Shown here one piece after another: positions 1 to 8,625 of a stretch of 8,625 bases of DNA (position 1 is its first letter; each line of letters starts with the position of its first letter). The position numbers and the translations under genes are program-made. Location of the stretch: the IMG/VR virus record IMGVR_UViG_2778261676_000003, positions 1 through 8,625 of that record. The stretch is one strand, 5' to 3'. Source of the DNA: a virus (Duplodnaviria > Heunggongvirae > Uroviricota > Caudoviricetes). The notes beneath the pieces were generated by a model. It did not search any database. It saw nothing but the letters and a program-made list of their open reading frames with translations, and was not told the origin of the DNA.

Positions 1-201
1 TTACCCATTGGCGCGGCTTAAGAGCTTATTTTTGAATTCACAGTGGTCACGATATAACCATCTTGCTCGCCCGTGGATAACTTTGGCTTTTGGCAGGTCG
101 CCGGACTTAATCCGGTCGTAGATGAAGGTTTTACCGAAGCCAGTATCGGCCATGATGAATTTCAAATCAACCAGTGAATCAGGTTGTAGTTCGTGTTGCA
201 T
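1..201 (-). CDS. torI: Excisionase / recombination directionality factor of the AlpA-Xis winged-helix family (TorI-like, 66 aa)
   Basis: Complete 66-aa ORF (ATG at 199-201, TAA at 1-3). The translation MQHELQPDSLVDLKFIMADTGFGKTFIYDRIKSGDLPKAKVIHGRARWLYRDHCEFKNKLLSRANG has the AlpA/Xis helix-turn-helix signature and matches my recollection of E. coli K-12 TorI (the KplE1 excisionase). The gene symbol is from memory and should be confirmed by BLAST. Confidence 0.85.
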   Translation of the reverse strand: MQHELQPDSLVDLKFIMADTGFGKTFIYDRIKSGDLPKAKVIHGRARWLYRDHCEFKNKLLSRANG

Positions 202-1045: not shown

Positions 1046-1260
1046 CACTTCACCTCCTGCTGCGGTGCTGCTGGCATTTCACGCCAGTGCGTAACTGAGT
1101 GCGGATCCGGATATTCGGTGCCATCATCCCAGCGATTGCCATTCCACATTGCAGACCACATCTCACCGTCTTCATACATGACCATTACCGGAATTAACTT
1201 ATCGCGCCAGAAGCGCAGCAGGCTATCAGATTTGCAGAGCGTGAAGGAGTTCCTCTGCAC
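1045..1260 (-). CDS. Hypothetical small Trp-rich, mildly acidic protein (up to 71 aa; start uncertain)
   Basis: ORF ends with TGA at 1045-1047, overlapping the start of the downstream membrane-protein gene. The track start at 1260 is a GTG with a poor ribosome-binding site. Internal ATGs (codons 26 and 28) would give a 44-46 aa product. Confidence 0.45.
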   Translation of the reverse strand: MQRNSFTLCKSDSLLRFWRDKLIPVMVMYEDGEMWSAMWNGNRWDDGTEYPDPHSVTHWREMPAAPQQEVK

Positions 1261-1299
1261 ACCACAGACCTGTTACAACCAACTTCCCGCGTCGGAAAA

Positions 1300-2463
1300 A
1301 TGGCGCAGACTACAGCAGAAAATATCCCTCTGGCTGGCACAAGCGGAATGAGAGCAACGCAACAGGAAGCGAGAAGCCAGTTGGTGCAGAGATTTGCTGA
1401 TAAATTTGGTGAGTATGATCCAGCGGTTGTTATTGACAGCCTTAAAGCGAAAACATCAGGAATTCGTCGTGCCGCCGGTAATCGACTGGAGCAGGTTCAG
1501 AATGCTATGGCTGGAGTAAACATTCAGCCTGTGCGAGCAATTCAGCAGATTGATACTGAGATATCTAACCTGCAGAAGCTTGGTAAGGTCGCTGATAACG
1601 AGACGATTTCAAAACTTCAATCCTATCGTGATGAGCTTGTTCGCAATGCTGGTCCTGATGGTCCGGTAAATCTGGATTTGAAGCAATTAAGCGATCTGCG
1701 CAGCCAGTTCAGAATGGATGTGAAGGGTGAGCGACCAGTGTTACCAAACCGTTCCGATGCTGCCATTCAGCGCGTTTACAAGGCAATGACTGACGATATC
1801 AATGGTGCCATTGGTCAGAATCTTGGCAACGATACTCTCCGTAAATATCAGCAGGCCAATGCCGTCTACGCTGACGAAGCGGCGAAACTAAAGAATACCA
1901 GGCTGAAGAATGTTCTCATGAAAGGCGACCTGACGCCGGAAGTTGTCAACAACATGCTATTCAGCAAGAACAAATCGGAAATTAAGACTCTGTATAACTC
2001 AGTTGGTCGTGTTGGCAGGGCGCAAATGCGCAATGGCATCATTGGAAAGGCAATGGAGAAATCTGGCGGATCCCCTGACCAGTTCCTTCGACAGCTTAAC
2101 ATCCTGCAAAACCAGACTGGCATCACATTTAAAGGTCAGGATGCTGCTTATCTGAAAGGATTAAAAAACTACCTGCAATCCACGCAGCAGGCTGCAAAAG
2201 CGGCAGTAACAACACCCACAGGGCAGCAAACTATTCCGTTCATTATAGGGTATGGGACGGCAATGAACCCGGCGACAACTGGCGCAGCAGTAAGCTACGG
2301 ACTTCTTACTCGCGCCTATGAGAGCGAGCCATTCAGAAATGCAATGCTCCGAATGGCAAACACCCCACGCGGATCAACAGCGTTTGAGAAAGCCATGCAG
2401 CAGGCACAAAAGGCCATTAACGCCCTGACTCAGGGGGCTAAGTCTGATGCGTTGTCAGAATAG
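1300..2463 (+). CDS. Hypothetical phage protein, 387 aa, Q/A/N-rich with predicted coiled regions; possibly a DNA-injection (ejection) protein-like remnant by synteny
   Basis: Long ORF with ATG at 1300 and TAG at 2461-2463, and a weak ribosome-binding site (GGA). It sits immediately upstream of mnt and the tailspike, the position gene 16 occupies in P22-like phages, and its composition resembles ejection proteins. The functional call is by position and composition only. Confidence 0.7.
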   Translation: MAQTTAENIPLAGTSGMRATQQEARSQLVQRFADKFGEYDPAVVIDSLKAKTSGIRRAAGNRLEQVQNAMAGVNIQPVRAIQQIDTEISNLQKLGKVADNETISKLQSYRDELVRNAGPDGPVNLDLKQLSDLRSQFRMDVKGERPVLPNRSDAAIQRVYKAMTDDINGAIGQNLGNDTLRKYQQANAVYADEAAKLKNTRLKNVLMKGDLTPEVVNNMLFSKNKSEIKTLYNSVGRVGRAQMRNGIIGKAMEKSGGSPDQFLRQLNILQNQTGITFKGQDAAYLKGLKNYLQSTQQAAKAAVTTPTGQQTIPFIIGYGTAMNPATTGAAVSYGLLTRAYESEPFRNAMLRMANTPRGSTAFEKAMQQAQKAINALTQGAKSDALSE

Positions 2464-2552
2464 CTTCGCAAACACCAGGAACGTGCAAAAACCAAATATG
2501 TAGAACGCAATATTCAGCATATCTCTTTGCATATATCCTCCGTAACTGATAG

Positions 2553-2846
2553 TTAGCTGCTGTCTTTTTTATATAGCTCTTTGAGCGTATCAAAGACAAT
2601 TTTCTTAACCATATCAGATTGTTGTTCTGCCATACGCTCTGCATCGTCAATGTAAACTGATGCAGAGTTTTGTTTATCCAATGATTCCTCAATCGCTGCA
2701 ATTATCTCTGAGTTCAGCGACCTGTTATTCATCTTCGCACGCTGCTTAATTTTCGCGTGGAGTTCATGCGGAAGTCTCAAGTGAAACTGCGCCTCGTCGT
2801 ATTTGCTGTACATCCTTGATGCCTCACCAGTTGGGTGGAATGGCAT
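2553..2846 (-). CDS. mnt: Mnt-like ribbon-helix-helix (Arc/MetJ superfamily) transcriptional repressor
   Basis: Translation contains QFHLRLPHELHAKIKQRAKMNNRSLNSEIIAAIEESL (RHH motif) and the C-terminus DAERMAEQQSDMVKKIVFDTLKELYKKDSS, closely resembling the P22 Mnt C-terminus (...DAERLADEQSELVKKMVFDTLKDLYKK..) as I recall it. AGGT ribosome-binding site 4 nt before the ATG at 2844-2846. An alternative ATG at 2811-2813 would give 86 aa. Confidence 0.85.
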   Translation of the reverse strand: MPFHPTGEASRMYSKYDEAQFHLRLPHELHAKIKQRAKMNNRSLNSEIIAAIEESLDKQNSASVYIDDAERMAEQQSDMVKKIVFDTLKELYKKDSS

Positions 2847-2934
2847 CGTAACCTACTGGATAAATACTCAATAGTACCATTTCTGTATGCAATCACATCA
2901 TGGTTGCATCATATCATTCGTCTGGAGCAATGAA
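2847..2934. promoter_or_regulatory. Divergent intergenic region between mnt and the tailspike gene; contains an inverted repeat ATGCAA-N11-TTGCAT (2887-2909) as a candidate operator
   Basis: 88-bp AT-rich spacer between divergently oriented start codons, with 6-bp inverted-repeat arms. Promoter hexamers are not confidently assignable by eye. Confidence 0.35.
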
Positions 2935-5091
2935 ATGTCAGATATCACCGCAAATGTTGTGGTAAGCATGCCTTCGCAACTCTTCACTATGGCTCGTTCT
3001 TTTAAAGCCGTAGCCAATGGCAAAATTTATATCGGTAAAATTGACACTGACCCGGTAAATCCTGAAAACCAGATTCAGGTTTATGTGGAGAACGAAGACG
3101 GCTCTCACGTTCCTGTTTCGCAACCAATCATCATTAACGCTGCTGGTTACCCGGTATATAACGGACAGATTGCCAAGTTCGTAACTGTGCAAGGCCATTC
3201 TATGGCTGTTTATGATGCATACGGTGTGCAGCAGTTCTATTTTCCTAATGTGCTGAAGTATGACCCGGATCAGTTTTCTGCAGAATGGCTTGCCAAGATG
3301 TCTGCGCCTGATTCTTATGCATTATTTGGTACATTCTCATCAATAGCAGATCTACGAGCATTTACTGCATACTCATCAGTTAAGGAAAATGGAAGAGTCT
3401 ATGTTGATTCTTATCACCTTGGAACTGGTTATGGCGGAGGATATTTCCGCTGGAATTCAACCAGCACTGATACTGATGACGGAGGCTATACCATTAACCC
3501 AACTGGCAATACTGGAACAGGACGCTGGAAACGTGAATTCGTATCTGCATATTCAGCTCGCACAGTTTCGCCTTTAGAGTTCGGTGCTAAGATGAATGAC
3601 AGCACCTTCGATAGTGCCCCAGCGATCAATGCCGCCATTTCATACCTCAATCCTTACTTTGATGCCTCATATGACTCACATCAAGGCGGGGATGTAACCA
3701 TGCCTGCCGGGATGTTTTACATCAATGACACAATATACGGTTCTCCAAATGTAAGATTGATCGGTACTGGGGGAACGACCGGATTTAGATATTCACGTGC
3801 TGGGTGCTGCATCATCATATCCATGTCAACAATGGATGCAAACAAGGTACAATATGACACTGCTCCTTATAAAATCGACGGTACTGGTAGATATACTGAC
3901 ACCTCAACAGTGGATAATGGGCTGACAATAAGCCACGGCTATTACGGACAGTATTTAGAAAACTTGGTTTTTTTGGGAAATCCAGATCAAAAAGCCAACA
4001 TTCGTATCTGGCGAGTGCCAACGTCAAAGTTAATTGGTGTGGGAACATATGGCTGTCTAACCAACTTCTGGATTAGCGGTTCTTGGGGTACGGCAGTTGA
4101 AAATTGCTTTGCTCAAGGAGCAAAATACGCAACATTTTTGACTCCTCACACCACAGCACTAAACATTGTAGGTGGGTACTTCACTGGAAACACATCGCAA
4201 ACATGGGCAATGGGTTCTGCTCAGTGGTTCCACAGGACTGCCTCTGATTCAAATCGTCCAAATATTGCTTATGTAACAACATTCCTTTATGCGCATGATT
4301 CAGTTGATATCAATATGCATGGAGTTACTTGGGAGGGTTACTATAGGGATTTTGCTTTATTCTACTGCGGTAATGTTAACGTTTTTGGTGGCTATAACGA
4401 AAACTCTGTAATCCCTAGCTCCGAGTATGGTCACACAGTCTGGGTGCACTGTGTAGCCTCTAGGATTAATGCTTATGGAGTATTTCTAAATCATGGGTAT
4501 AAGGATTTCGCCGTTCAGTCAGGAAATTTAATTGACCCATCTACCGGGGCGTTAATCCCTTCTGAAATATCTAACATAAATCTTTATGACCCAAGAGTGG
4601 ACTCGAAGTTTTTACAGATAAACAAAGATCTTGGATACGGCGAATATAGTATATTCATTAGCTGCAAGCATCCTATAACATCAGATCTTGCTGTCACACT
4701 TGCCTCATTAAGAAACTACTCGGCCCAATTTGATGGCCTGCTTGATCAATACACTATGCGGGTTCCCTCAATAACTCCAAATGGAACAACAAGCTTTAGC
4801 TTCCAAATCAGTAATATATCTAGTAATGGTGAGTATAACGTGCGCTTTTTAGCCAGAAACTCTGGCGGCACTTTACATCAGGATATTAGATTTAAAATGC
4901 TAATTGGAAGCGTGGTGTCAGTGACAGGGGTGGAAGAGCGTTCGAAAGTAGGTACTGCAAGCTTGGGCTCACCTTCGGTTAGCTTTGCTTCTGGCACGGT
5001 AACGATAACCTTTAATGGGAATTCAGGACTATATTCTTTATACCGTGTGCAATGCTTGCCTGTTAACAATCAAGTTATTTACAGTTTCTGA
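2935..5091 (+). CDS. Phage tailspike protein: P22-type N-terminal head-binding domain fused to a divergent beta-helix-like receptor-binding/depolymerase domain (718 aa)
   Basis: N-terminus [59 protein letters not shown]...[11 protein letters not shown] closely parallels the P22 gp9 head-binding domain ([43 protein letters not shown]...). GGAG ribosome-binding site 7 nt upstream of the ATG at 2935; the track's upstream start at 2887 adds 16 residues not seen in homologs. Downstream [23 protein letters not shown] resembles the entry motif of pectate-lyase-like beta-helix depolymerases. Stop TGA at 5089-5091. Confidence 0.9.
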
Positions 5092-5131: not shown

Positions 5132-7024
5132 TCACAAAAGAGGGTTTTTATGATTTTTCAAGTAAATCTTAGCCAATTCTCTTGCGCCATAAACATTTAG
5201 ATGTGCATGATCCATGTAAATAAACCTTCCATTTAAATAAACCTTGCAGCCTGAATCCGTGCAAAGGATATCATTTGGGTCTATATAAACTGGTTCTTTG
5301 TAGGAATTCATGATTTCATCTAATGAAATGTTAACATTTACTTTTTTAGCAAGTTCACTGTGGTCATCATTTCCAGATGCAATGTCAGATTTAAACTTGT
5401 TGAATTCCTTATAATCCATACCATTTGGTCTAAGTATTACAATTAGTTTAGCACCATGTGATGATAGGTATTCAAGAGTGGATAAGATGTCGTAACCATC
5501 TGCCTTGAAGTAACTGTCATCATTACCCCAACTAGCCCCTACAATCACGTTTTTATAACCCCTAGCCAAATCAATCCTTTTTTTGTTATAGGATAGCTTT
5601 TCCTCGCTACGGTATTTTGAAACCTTTGTGCCCTCTCTATATGGATTTATATTCATAATTGGTGGGAGCGAGCTTGAAACAGTAACAGCGACTGATTTTC
5701 CTGCATCCTTAGCCAAATAATCAATGAACTCTATGTATGACCCTGCTATCGAATCACCGATCATTATGGTCTCTGGCTTTTTTGTTACATCTCCTATGAT
5801 GCATAAACCATCTTTAGTTAGTGAATAGCTATCATAGCACTGAGAGTATTTGACCTCAGACCTGTTCTCATTTGCAAAATCGTTATTGTTAAATCTATCT
5901 GGGAATCCTTTCTCTGAGGAAGCCCAGAGGAAAATAAGTGAGAAAATTACAAGAGGAAGAATTAATAGAAGCAAGAGCGAAGGCAAGAATCCCATCTTAA
6001 ACTTGCGCACCTTAGTTTCAAAAGCATAAAAGTTGAATATAGAGAGAGCGATTGTTAGTATCAATACCACAAATTTAACAAAAATAGTGAACTCAACACC
6101 CCTATAATTAAGTAGGGCAATTATAGGCCAATGCCACAAATACATTGAATAAGAGATTTTGCCAATGAATATAACTGGTTTTAAACTTAAAACTCTGTTA
6201 ACAATTGGTGTAAAGGATTGATTGGCTCCAGCGATTATTATTAATGCCGCACCCACGCAAGGTATCAAAGCATTATAGCCAGGGAACAAGCTTTCTTTCT
6301 CTATTGAGAAAGAGCTAAATGCAATTAATGTTATACCTAAAATAGAGAAGGCGTTTGATACTTTTGTGGATTCAAATTTGTAATTACTTAGTAATATTGA
6401 AATAACGCCACCAATCATCAACTCAAAAGCCCTGAATGGGAGCATGTAGTATGCAAGCGATGTATATATAAGTGCGCCGTATTGCGAAACAGCAAACAAA
6501 GCAATTATTATCAAAACAAAGATCTGAAGCTCATACTTTCTAAATTTCAATATCACAAATGAAATTATCAAAGGTGCAATTAGATAGTACTGTTCCTCGA
6601 CGGATAAAGACCACGTGTGAAGAAGAGGGATCTGATCGGCGTTCCCTGAGAAATAGCTTGTAGTGTTGAAGTAAAAAAGGAAATTACTGATAGAAAGAAG
6701 AGTGAATATTGCGCTTTTGATCATGTATATAAACTCATCAGGCATCAATATGAAAATTGATGCGACTAATGTTGTAAATAACACGACCAATAAAGATGGC
6801 AAAATTCTCTTGATTCTTCTGTTGTAAAACCCTGAGTATGTGAAACTTCCGTTAGAAATTTCCTTTCTTATTATGGAGGTTATTAGATACCCAGAGATTA
6901 CAAAGAAAATATCTACCCCGATAAATCCGCCCGTAATGAACTGGCTACCAACATGATAGACTATTACCAATAGAACGGCTACTGCACGCAAGCCGTCAAT
7001 GTCTGGTCTATATCTAATCTCCAT
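5132..7024 (-). CDS. Integral-membrane O-acetyltransferase, acyltransferase-3 family with a C-terminal SGNH domain (OafA/Oac-like; likely O-antigen acetylation / serotype conversion), 630 aa
   Basis: N-terminal motif RPDIDGLRAVAVLLVIVYH and multiple hydrophobic segments typical of the acyltransferase-3 fold. C-terminal GDS (IGDSIA) and DHAH blocks typical of SGNH esterase-like domains. ATG at 7022-7024 with a GGGA ribosome-binding site. The gene looks AT-rich by eye. Confidence 0.9.
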   Translation of the reverse strand: MEIRYRPDIDGLRAVAVLLVIVYHVGSQFITGGFIGVDIFFVISGYLITSIIRKEISNGSFTYSGFYNRRIKRILPSLLVVLFTTLVASIFILMPDEFIYMIKSAIFTLLSISNFLFYFNTTSYFSGNADQIPLLHTWSLSVEEQYYLIAPLIISFVILKFRKYELQIFVLIIIALFAVSQYGALIYTSLAYYMLPFRAFELMIGGVISILLSNYKFESTKVSNAFSILGITLIAFSSFSIEKESLFPGYNALIPCVGAALIIIAGANQSFTPIVNRVLSLKPVIFIGKISYSMYLWHWPIIALLNYRGVEFTIFVKFVVLILTIALSIFNFYAFETKVRKFKMGFLPSLLLLLILPLVIFSLIFLWASSEKGFPDRFNNNDFANENRSEVKYSQCYDSYSLTKDGLCIIGDVTKKPETIMIGDSIAGSYIEFIDYLAKDAGKSVAVTVSSSLPPIMNINPYREGTKVSKYRSEEKLSYNKKRIDLARGYKNVIVGASWGNDDSYFKADGYDILSTLEYLSSHGAKLIVILRPNGMDYKEFNKFKSDIASGNDDHSELAKKVNVNISLDEIMNSYKEPVYIDPNDILCTDSGCKVYLNGRFIYMDHAHLNVYGARELAKIYLKNHKNPLL

Positions 7025-7467: not shown

Positions 7468-8625
7468 TCACTCCACCTTTTCATCAATCCAGTCCGCCCA
7501 CCATTGCATCATTTCTCTGCGTTTATCGAGATACTGAGCATGGTTGTAAATCCCACGCACAGAACCGCCGTTGGCATGTGCCAGTTGCACTTCAATAGCA
7601 TCAGCAGGCCATTCGTGCTCGTTCATAATCGTGCTGAATTCATGCCTGAATCCGTGACCGCTTTCCAGACCCTCATAGCCGATTTGTTTGATCACAAGTA
7701 GCACCGCGTTCTCGCAGATTGGCTTTTTCTTATCGTTGCGCCCGGCAAAAACAAACTCTGATACTGGTTTAGTGATGGAGCTTAGCGTAGTGAGAAGTTC
7801 AACCACCTGGTCCGACATCGGGACCACATGAATTTTGCGTCCCTTCATCACACTGGCGTCGATGGTGATAATCCTGTTTTCAAAATCGACGTTCTTCCAT
7901 TGCATGGAACGAAGCTCTTTTGTTCTTAGGGCTGTGTAGCGTAAAACCTTGGTCGCAATGAGCGATACGATGCTTCCTGAAAATGTTGCCAGTGCTTTGT
8001 TAAATGCCGGGATCTGGTCTGCAGGAAGAAACGGGAAGTTTTTCTTGCGGTATCCCTTCATGGCGTCAGCAAGGTCAGGTGCCGGGTTATATTTAGCCCT
8101 ACCAGTGACAATGGCGTAACGGAAAACCTCGCCGCATCTTCTGCGGGCTTTGTTGGCTCGCTCCATTGCACCGCGATCTTCAAATCTGCGGATTACTTCC
8201 AGCAGTTGCATCGGCTCAATATCCTGAATCTCAAGACCGCCGATGATAGGTAAAATGTCGTCATCAAACATTTTTGCAAGTTCATTTGCATAGCCTACTG
8301 ACCAGACTTGCTTCTTGTGCTCGTACCATTCCTTGTAAATCGCACTAAAGGAATTGTTGTTAGACGAAGCCTTTTTCGCCTTTACCGGATCGATGCCGAC
8401 CGAGATGTCTTTCCTCGCAGTCCATGCTTTATCCCTTGCCTCCTGCAAAGTCATAAGCGGATATTTTCCGACGGTCAGTATTTTTTCCTTACCGTCAATC
8501 TTGTAGCGAAGCTGCCATACCTTTTTCCCGGATACAGGAACATAAAGGTACAGGCCATTACCATCGAGAAGGCGGTATGGTTTTTCTTTCGGCTTTGCTG
8601 CTTCAATCTGCTTAACGGTGAGCAT
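7468..8625 (-). CDS. intS: Tyrosine site-specific integrase with an N-terminal arm-binding (DUF4102-type) domain, P4/CP4-57/IntS family (385 aa)
   Basis: N-terminus MLTVKQIEAAKPKEKPYRLLDGNGLYLYVPVSGKKVWQLRYKIDGKEK is the characteristic arm-binding domain of P4-type integrases. C-terminal catalytic-domain residues include ...HGFRHEFST... and ...LAHANGGSVRGIYNH.... The sequence matches my recollection of E. coli K-12 IntS, so the symbol should be confirmed by BLAST. The start codon is the last three bases of the window. Confidence 0.92.
   Translation of the reverse strand: MLTVKQIEAAKPKEKPYRLLDGNGLYLYVPVSGKKVWQLRYKIDGKEKILTVGKYPLMTLQEARDKAWTARKDISVGIDPVKAKKASSNNNSFSAIYKEWYEHKKQVWSVGYANELAKMFDDDILPIIGGLEIQDIEPMQLLEVIRRFEDRGAMERANKARRRCGEVFRYAIVTGRAKYNPAPDLADAMKGYRKKNFPFLPADQIPAFNKALATFSGSIVSLIATKVLRYTALRTKELRSMQWKNVDFENRIITIDASVMKGRKIHVVPMSDQVVELLTTLSSITKPVSEFVFAGRNDKKKPICENAVLLVIKQIGYEGLESGHGFRHEFSTIMNEHEWPADAIEVQLAHANGGSVRGIYNHAQYLDKRREMMQWWADWIDEKVE

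Follow-up and report, generated by a model that had tools for sequence, protein, structure and literature searches.

The 8,625-nucleotide stretch of viral DNA analysed here (the window) is what survives of a P22-like (Lederbergvirus) prophage belonging to the argW-integrating type, and in it an mnt-like gene lies beside the tailspike gene. On balance we favour the reading that this gene represents the P22-family 'ant moron' in its mnt-only form, an immI remnant, within a deleted argW-type prophage; and, as part of the same reading, that an 86-amino-acid Mnt would be made from a homologue of the P22 promoter P_mnt and would bind a 15 bp pseudo-palindrome at 2874–2888 as P22 Mnt binds O_mnt. Lone mnt genes under purifying selection fall into reading-head classes, each with a conserved palindrome at the O_mnt position, and neither arc nor ant was detected in 157 loci of two lone-mnt classes. 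These findings are new here and together argue for a function of lone mnt.

An mnt gene next to the tailspike gene in a deleted prophage

The genes of the window, and the small early-left genes recognised by domain search, are as follows.

1–201, minus strand: excisionase/TorI-like gene (open reading frame list and domain search)
between the 1–201 gene and the gene-16 fragment: small early-left genes (DUF4752, DUF551)
1200–2463, plus strand: 3′ part of a gene-16-type DNA-ejection gene (lytic transglycosylase family), cut near 1200 at the deletion junction
2553–2813, minus strand: mnt-like gene, likely coding region (86 amino acids plus stop), ribbon-helix-helix with QFHLR and C-terminal tetramerisation helix
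2814–2846, minus strand: 11-codon upstream extension of the same reading frame, probably untranslated; ATG 2846 is the start assumed earlier
2935–5091, plus strand: tailspike gene (718 amino acids), P22-type head-binding domain followed by a putative receptor-binding part
5132–7024, minus strand: AT3-SGNH acyltransferase gene
7468–8625, minus strand: IntS-type integrase gene

A related E. coli locus has the same frame, running from torI through remnants, mnt and tailspike to intS and tRNA-Arg. Similarity to E. coli genomes sets in abruptly at window position 1200, a point that falls inside genes whose annotation is either lytic transglycosylase or DNA transfer protein, and no complete genome spans the junction near 1200. 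A deletion has therefore removed the interval from the early-left genes to the middle of gene 16, and the window prophage has no late promoter, head genes or lysis genes. The gene-16 fragment is of the other gene-16 type (Sf6 gp13/lytic transglycosylase) and the open reading frame at 1300–2463 has no similarity to Sf101 gp13. mnt is placed between this gene-16 homologue, from which it is separated by 89 bp, and the tailspike gene, antisense to the end of the late operon. Within this prophage the mnt module is probably idle.

The tailspike was identified by its Head_binding domain (Pfam, 1.2e-66, residues 1–113) and by the agreement of its N-terminus with P22 gp9. Searches of the window with tblastn found no arc, ant or sieA, and neither of the intervals flanking mnt is long enough for a gene, leaving no room for arc or ant. 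The antisense RNA sar is encoded at the arc-ant junction, which is absent here, and no sar match was obtained from Rfam in 2300–3200 (E up to 1), nor any other Rfam family in that interval. The initial annotation had described an orphan Mnt-like gene divergent from the tailspike gene, with neither arc nor ant and with the tailspike as the only gene opposite the Mnt regulatory region, and this description was borne out.

The mnt product, its translation start and its selection

The open reading frame at 2553–2846 (minus strand, 97 amino acids) was confirmed in the open reading frame list. Its product matches the Pfam Arc ribbon-helix-helix family (PF03869, 3.1e-14, residues 18–59 of the 97-amino-acid frame) and the whole of the Repressor_Mnt profile (PF11423, 3.4e-14); among structures it matches both the N-terminal domain of P22 Mnt (1mnt, 1.3e-18, residues 6–79) and the P22 tetramerisation domain (1qey, 1.6e-08), with 47.5% identity to P22 Mnt. 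These homologies show the predicted product to be a Mnt-family ribbon-helix-helix repressor with the C-terminal Mnt tetramerisation helix. Its reading head is QFHLR versus HFNFR in P22 Mnt, in keeping with the earlier remark that the DNA-reading region differs from that of P22.

Translation of mnt probably starts at ATG 2813, giving 86 amino acids, and not at ATG 2846 as first annotated. Close homologues are annotated (by PGAP and others) from MYSKYDEAQ, giving proteins of 84–86 amino acids, and a GAGG lies 8 nt 5′ of ATG 2813. The 97-amino-acid start was set aside: ATG 2846 lies within the block TACGATGCC, which is invariant as DNA in 31 distinct upstream sequences and is read here as the predicted −10 region, and the upstream ATG is out of the mnt frame in Gally and in distant relatives from Buttiauxella and Serratia. 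Substitutions within 2814–2846 are non-synonymous, and they concentrate in a repeat's loop. With the start at 2813 the spacer between mnt and the tailspike gene becomes 2814–2934 (121 bp); the distance is 88–121 bp depending on whether 2846 or 2813 is taken.

The mnt family is under purifying selection. Nei–Gojobori comparisons of the 86-amino-acid coding region with its relatives (dS up to 0.3) gave dN/dS values of 0.04–0.2, and these low values, together with the conserved operator core described below, argue that lone mnt is being maintained and is not in decay, although single copies can degenerate, as shown by an in-frame stop in one Citrobacter copy.

Predicted promoter and candidate operator of mnt

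The features of the spacer are the following.

2818–2847: inverted repeat GATGCC-N18-GGCATC, with inner CACC/GGTG pairing, overlapping the P_mnt −10
2845–2850, minus strand: predicted P_mnt −10 (TACGAT on the mnt strand); GCATCGT invariant in 31 distinct upstream sequences
2866–2871, minus strand: predicted P_mnt −35 (TTGAGT on the mnt strand); matches TTGAGA of P22 P_mnt, with CAA of CAAT invariant
2874–2888: candidate Mnt operator, pseudo-palindrome GTACC-N5-GGTAC, centre 2881, abutting CAAT
2887–2909, plus strand: inverted repeat ATGCAA-N11-TTGCAT, 9 bp stem (arms 2887–2895 and 2901–2909) and 5 nt loop
2924–2927, plus strand: tailspike Shine-Dalgarno GGAG, invariant in both leader-type alignments, 7 nt before ATG 2935

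Assignments of promoter and operator were made by positional homology and conservation. The predicted P_mnt hexamers of the window (TTGAGT-15-TACGAT) correspond to TTGAGA-17-TATCAT in P22, TTGTTG-17-TACGAT in the JEP4/VSe13 subgroup and TTGTGG-17-TATGAT in ST64T, the −10 TACGAT aligning with TATCAT of P22 and TATGAT of ST64T; the spacer of only 15 bp accounts for the absence of this promoter from the promoter-scan list. We infer leftward transcription of mnt from this P_mnt homologue, and no clear terminator was found between mnt and the gene-16 end. The repeat at 2818–2847 spans the mnt leader and Shine-Dalgarno sequence and folds with a ΔG of −14.9 on the plus and −12.7 on the minus strand (z about −2.5 on both). 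It is conserved in both lone-mnt classes described below, the inner stem reading GTCC/GGAC in the Buttiauxella relative (L012), and single variants in it point both ways as to whether it is read as RNA or as DNA.

When spacers were aligned on CAAT, the complement of the P_mnt −35, a palindrome was found to begin at the next base in every Mnt type. In P22 this palindrome is AGGTCCACGGTGGACCT, the annotated mnt operator in AF527608, and at the same position ST64T has TAAGACCACCGTGGTCTTA, JEP4 TACCGTTTCGGTA, L012 GTACCATTTTGGTAC and Gally AAGACCACAGTGGTCT; Sf101 and IME10 share GTACCATTTCGGTAT, and the palindromes of L012, JEP4 and a further relative (L059) are perfect. The candidate operator of the window thus begins right after CAAT, in the same place as P22 O_mnt, and this 15 bp pseudo-palindrome at 2874–2888 is where Mnt would bind.

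Conservation of the operator was judged only on 31 distinct upstream sequences that had been obtained via the protein and not via a DNA pattern, since a further 120 loci had been chosen with a pattern containing the operator core. Across the 31 sequences the invariant blocks of the spacer are CAA of the −35, GCATCGT of the −10, TACC and GGTA, the window allele being the sole exception in the GGTA half-site. The window allele (GTACCATTTCTGTAT) carries a G-to-T change at 2884 within this half-site and is a minority form, found in about 4 of 85 loci; it agrees with GTACCNNNNNGGTAC at 13 of 15 positions but is a poor palindrome (TACCA versus TGTA sides), and a palindrome search of the window does not list it. 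No further operator copies beyond chance were found in the window. An operator-like site in Sf101 (GTACCAGATGTGTAC, 36 bp upstream of int) was also considered as a further target but was treated as chance, as about 5% of shuffles give two sites.

A predicted RNA hairpin in the tailspike leader

The initial annotation had pointed out the inverted repeat ATGCAA-N11-TTGCAT in the spacer. The repeat is real (2887–2909) but is probably not the Mnt operator, the positional equivalent of O_mnt being the palindrome at 2874–2888; the way the repeat varies is suggestive of an RNA hairpin in the leader of the tailspike mRNA. It folds with −9.8 kcal/mol (z −2.7) on the plus strand and −6.6 kcal/mol (z −1.3) on the minus strand, and in 22 distinct sequences its stem pairs in 98% of cells as plus-strand RNA (194 of 198) versus 86% as minus-strand RNA (171 of 198). 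One pair occurs as G:C, U:G and U:A and another as U:G, U:A and C:G, with further changes from C:G to U:G and from A:U to G:U. These sequences are few and close relatives of one another, and the observed level of pairing was reached by 8 of 500 shuffles. A protein-binding DNA palindrome was rejected for this repeat because the commonest allele has a T/G position and pairing is kept only on the plus strand. A rho-independent terminator was likewise rejected, the element being missed by the terminator scan and having G:C at 3 of its 9 pairs and a tail, CAUAUCAUUCGUC, that lacks a U tract. Folding of the whole of 2873–2940 was no better than shuffles (z −0.31), with only the local hairpin standing out. 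An in-frame upstream start for the tailspike at ATG 2887 was ruled out, as it reads ATT in one relative (L010).

The other type of tailspike leader, which includes that of P22 itself, carries the 'boundary sequence' CCGTAGCCAYGCTGCGG, which is spaced equally far from the Shine-Dalgarno of the tailspike gene. Here too the pairing over 22 distinct sequences is higher on the plus strand (96%) than on the minus strand (78%), with three pair types at several positions. Two non-homologous sequences are thus predicted to give a plus-strand hairpin at corresponding positions of the tailspike leader, and its role could be in processing, stability or partial termination.

Distribution and reading-head classes of lone mnt

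The lone-mnt arrangement is common and has been described previously. Villafane et al. (PMC2629481) named the interval between genes 16 and 9 the 'ant moron' and suggested that the moron may affect the level of tailspike, with a possible part for Mnt and Arc; 'mnt-only ant morons' have been described for ST64T, ST104 and phage L (Villafane 2008; Zaworski 2020), and the published work on phage L and on the ant moron has already asked whether such genes function or are remnants. Phages Sf101 and IME10 share 97% identity with the window over the stretch from mnt through the spacer to the tailspike start. Of 5426 complete E. coli genomes, 277 (about 5%) contain the module, among them E. coli W with 98.7% identity, and it also occurs in 426 IMG/VR stretches. 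Other phages with a lone mnt beside the tailspike gene are SE1, ST160, ST64T, L, Gally, 720R6, JEP4 and VSe13, and most lone-mnt copies are intact, in 38–40 kb prophages and in viable phages. In Sf101 the gene product, gp14, bears the annotation 'partition protein ATPase', and mnt is nowhere mentioned in the paper on that phage; the IME10 gene is unannotated. The class to which the window belongs, with a QFHLR head and a TACC-N5-GGTA palindrome, has been sequenced before but not analysed.

To compare contexts, 80 IMG/VR loci were sampled for each of three Mnt types, with genes detected by sequence motif; IMG/VR loci are highly redundant and the counts are not independent events. In the P22 type (HFNFR), arc was downstream in 75 of 80 loci and the palindrome was GGTCCAC-N-GTGGACC. 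The QFNLR class had no arc in 77 loci and a tailspike within 200 nt in 68; its palindrome, AGACCAC-N-GTGGTCT, has perfect arms of 7–9 bp with all four bases occurring at the centre. The QFHLR class of the window had no arc in 80 loci, a tailspike downstream in 75, and the palindrome TACC-N5-GGTA. In these sampled loci the reading head is thus associated with the palindrome and with the gene context, and by motif detection arc was found in none of the 157 loci of the two lone-mnt classes. Matches to the operator pattern were in mnt–tailspike contexts in 110 of 120 cases. A comparison with intact relatives had been proposed as a way to see whether arc and ant were deleted: the absence of arc held throughout the QFHLR loci, and no arc- or ant-bearing relative with the same operator was found among the 110 contexts.

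What a lone Mnt might do

On the reading that we favour, transcription from P_mnt would run leftward through mnt to give the 86-amino-acid Mnt, which would occupy 2874–2888 abutting the −35, as at P22 O_mnt, and could coexist there with its own promoter. Bound Mnt would shut off whatever transcription starts rightward in the tailspike leader or passes through it. As the strong P_ant of P22 is not conserved, the effect of Mnt would be limited to weak rightward initiation, to polymerase traffic or to its own expression. The benefit might lie in control of residual transcription directed at the tailspike, in immunity to related phages, or in the leftward transcript acting as an antisense RNA. If there is no rightward promoter, selection for operator and protein would have no evident basis on this reading, which leaves room for three other explanations.

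The initial annotation had raised the possibility that the repressor was rewired to control the tailspike. Stated fully, this would be a working switch, in which the tailspike gene is transcribed from a promoter of the spacer derived from P_ant, and this promoter is repressed by Mnt in lysogens. In its favour the operator core has been kept though arc and ant are gone, the operator precedes the tailspike start by 54 nt and so occupies the site at which P_ant is blocked by Mnt in P22, and an influence of Mnt and Arc on tailspike level is the proposal of Villafane et al. The promoter is the difficulty. A consensus scan lists no plus-strand promoter in 2400–3100, and the P_ant hexamers TTGACA/TATATT of P22 read GAATGG/TAAATA at the aligned positions of the window, so that no conserved P_ant was found. 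A looser scan gave as its best rightward candidate ATGGCA (2840–2845)-17-AATACT (2863–2868), a weak 8/12 match which does have A at −11 and T at −7 and would start near 2875, within the operator; however, chance yields matches at such a level and the candidate is not conserved, a hexamer of it reading AATCAA in the JEP4/VSe13 subgroup and varying freely as TTnnATCC in the QFNLR class. With no convincing sigma-70 promoter, a tailspike promoter controlled by Mnt is possible but unsupported, and we regard the switch as rather unlikely. To our knowledge the tailspike gene is the last gene of the late operon in all P22-like phages, and most simply it would be expressed mainly as such.

The second explanation, that mnt and its site are functionless leftovers of a degraded immI, was also raised at the outset and for the copy in the window it is a fair description: this copy sits in a prophage that has lost the interval from the early-left genes to the middle of gene 16, and its operator half-site carries the minority G-to-T change. 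The stop in the Citrobacter copy also speaks for this explanation, and the authors on phage L kept the option open. For the family the evidence runs the other way. The dN/dS values and the intact state of most copies speak against decay, as do the invariant operator core and the QFNLR class, which keeps perfect arms while the centre base varies; and random decay from a P22-type locus would not give the pattern of 157 loci of two head classes without arc. For the family as a whole, we therefore think a relic improbable.

The third explanation is immunity in trans, in which resident Mnt or an antisense leftward transcript acts on superinfecting relatives by operator occupancy or base-pairing. 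It draws on phage BTP1, whose lysogens express a leftward RNA at the same junction (STnc6030); this RNA is antisense to the end of gene 16 and to the beginning of the tailspike gene, and it excludes superinfecting BTP1 (PMC7067206). mnt would be transcribed in the orientation and place of STnc6030, with no clear terminator before the gene-16 end, and a leftward promoter-like sequence (CTGACA-17-AATGAT, 2941–2913, 9/12) lies at the tailspike start. The number of such promoter-like sites, however, equals the chance expectation; selection acts on the protein sequence and not merely on a transcript, and the 110 contexts include no ant-carrying phage with a GTACC-N5-GGTAC operator. We give this explanation little credence.

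P22 immI is a textbook circuit, and whether lone mnt has a function or is a remnant is a question that has stood since 2008. We suggest, very tentatively, that the lone mnt cassette may be a device in its own right, kept by selection where gene 16 meets the tailspike gene and present in at least two specificity classes that were sampled without arc or ant. Mnt bound in the tailspike leader, acting with its leftward transcript antisense to the late mRNA, would gate tailspike production, or else the cassette would exclude superinfecting relatives in the manner of STnc6030; mnt would then be an immunity or dosage module linked to the tailspike and not a controller of an antirepressor. For the window, the consequence is that an ordinary module sits in a dead prophage, and that its predicted leader hairpin is not to be mistaken for the operator.

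Comparison with known systems

With P22 immI the window shares a Mnt of the same two-domain architecture, its place between gene 16 and the tailspike gene and its orientation, along with homologous predicted P_mnt hexamers and a candidate palindrome that abuts the −35 where O_mnt lies. It differs in lacking arc, sar and ant and a conserved P_ant, in its candidate operator (TACC-N5-GGTA within 15 bp, with a 5 bp gap, versus GGTCCAC-N-GTGGACC), and in that the prophage-maintenance function of mnt is not evident in the window. Arc of P22 has the same ribbon-helix-helix fold, and the strand QFHLRLP of the window protein is closer to QFNLRWP of Arc than to HFNFRMP of Mnt; Arc, however, has 53 amino acids without a tetramerisation helix, and the window protein scores 1.3e-18 against Mnt versus 9e-04 against Arc.

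In ST64T, ST104, L, SE1, ST160 and Gally, as in the window, a lone mnt is divergent from the tailspike gene, at a distance of 121–146 bp. The ant morons of the ST64T/L type have in common with the window the GATGCC...GGCATC repeat, the P_mnt layout, a palindrome at the same position and the lack of arc in any sampled locus. They differ in the QFNLR head, in the AGACCAC-N-GTGGTCT palindrome, in hosts that are mostly Salmonella, and in a tailspike leader with the 'boundary sequence' hairpin, where the window has ATGCAATCA...TGGTTGCAT.

The lysogen-expressed leftward transcript STnc6030 of BTP1 occupies the gene 16/tailspike junction of a P22-like prophage, but is non-coding (no open reading frame above 60 amino acids) and its superinfection exclusion has been shown experimentally. 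Closest to the window are Sf101, with gp14, and IME10, viable temperate phages of Shigella and E. coli, in which the protein is 97–98% and the spacer 97% identical to those of the window; they carry the common operator allele CGGTA versus CTGTA in the window.

Mnt reading head and genomic context

Across IMG/VR loci (L018–L097 and L221–L380), the DNA-contacting strand of Mnt, its reading head, predicted the genomic context of the gene. arc accompanied mnt copies with the HFNFR head, that of P22, in 75/80 loci; it was found in 0/77 loci with the QFNLR head (ST64T, SE1 and Gally) and in 0/80 with the QFHLR head of the window. In these last two groups, the lone-mnt classes, it is the tailspike gene that mnt faces, in place of arc.

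Many relatives (prophage loci L022, L024, L043, L094, L023, L032, L045, L059 and others) keep the tailspike start MSDIT followed by a break after five codons, and some 520–560 bp past this broken start, upstream of mnt, lies a different tailspike gene with a start of its own, so that tailspike replacement leaves the block of mnt, operator, hairpin and start intact. In phage JEP4 (L006 3803–6463), KilA-type, Rha-type and c2-like repressor genes lie between gene 16 and mnt; this set is a different antirepressor-like module, placed on the opposite side of the lone mnt.

Structures in the mnt and tailspike leaders

The mnt leader carries the following repeat:

2818–2847, inverted repeat GATGCC-N18-GGCATC with inner CACC/GGTG pairing

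The repeat overlaps the mnt Shine-Dalgarno and the -10 of the predicted leftward promoter P_mnt. It is kept in both lone-mnt classes and absent in P22; a Buttiauxella locus (L012) has GTCC/GGAC in place of the inner stem. Single variants of the repeat favoured neither strand.

In P22, ST64T, SE1, Gally and others (L221–L300, L007, L008, L098), a separate 'boundary sequence' directly precedes the tailspike gene. It shows covariation and behaves as an RNA hairpin of the + strand, with 96% pairing there versus 78% on the - strand. At the matching position, the window-type leader has an unrelated hairpin (2887–2909).

Variation, decay and naming of mnt

In the VSe13/JEP4 subgroup (VSe13, L003; JEP4, L006; Citrobacter locus L014), the QFHLR DNA-binding domain carries another C-terminal third, EEERLASLISEQVKEVAADILRKEKTRS; this pairing suggests a recombination point inside mnt that lies between its head and its oligomerisation helix. 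One truly decayed copy is the L014 gene (3001–3252), in which codon 5 is an in-frame stop (MYSK*).

RefSeq labels Mnt homologues 'partition protein ATPase' (Sf101 gp14, L002 6009–6302; the mnt genes of NC_011802, NC_004348 and NC_011976), the label of PHROG 795, which matches the Mnt protein at 2e-35. This looks like the propagated misannotation of a repressor. The IME10 homologue has no annotation.

Gene content of the deleted prophage

The window is a P22-like prophage with heavy deletion. Around position 1200 the early-left genes torI/xis, DUF4752 and DUF551 run into a gene-16-type ejection gene at its middle (1–1300), a junction spanned by none of the complete E. coli genomes, any one of which covers at most 46% of the window. 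Its right-hand part contains:

5132–7024, AT3-SGNH acyltransferase gene
7468–8625, intS, at the right end

The acyltransferase, likely an O-antigen acetyltransferase, is AT-rich (34–39% G+C versus 43–49% in the rest of the window) and, with the C-terminal part of the tailspike, forms the least shared portion.

Comparison with Sf101 and BTP1

In Sf101 the operator pattern is nearly matched a second time, by GTACCAGATGTGTAC (L219 18350–18364), which lies 36 bp upstream of where the integrase gene starts; about 5% of shuffles gave two such sites per genome. At the tailspike start the window has:

2913–2941, - strand, promoter-like CTGACA-17-AATGAT (9 of 12), overlapping the tailspike start codon

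Sites of this kind are as numerous as expected by chance. This one is overlapped by TGnTATGAT, and its position recalls the start of STnc6030, the lysogen-expressed leftward antisense RNA at the gene 16/tailspike junction of prophage BTP1.
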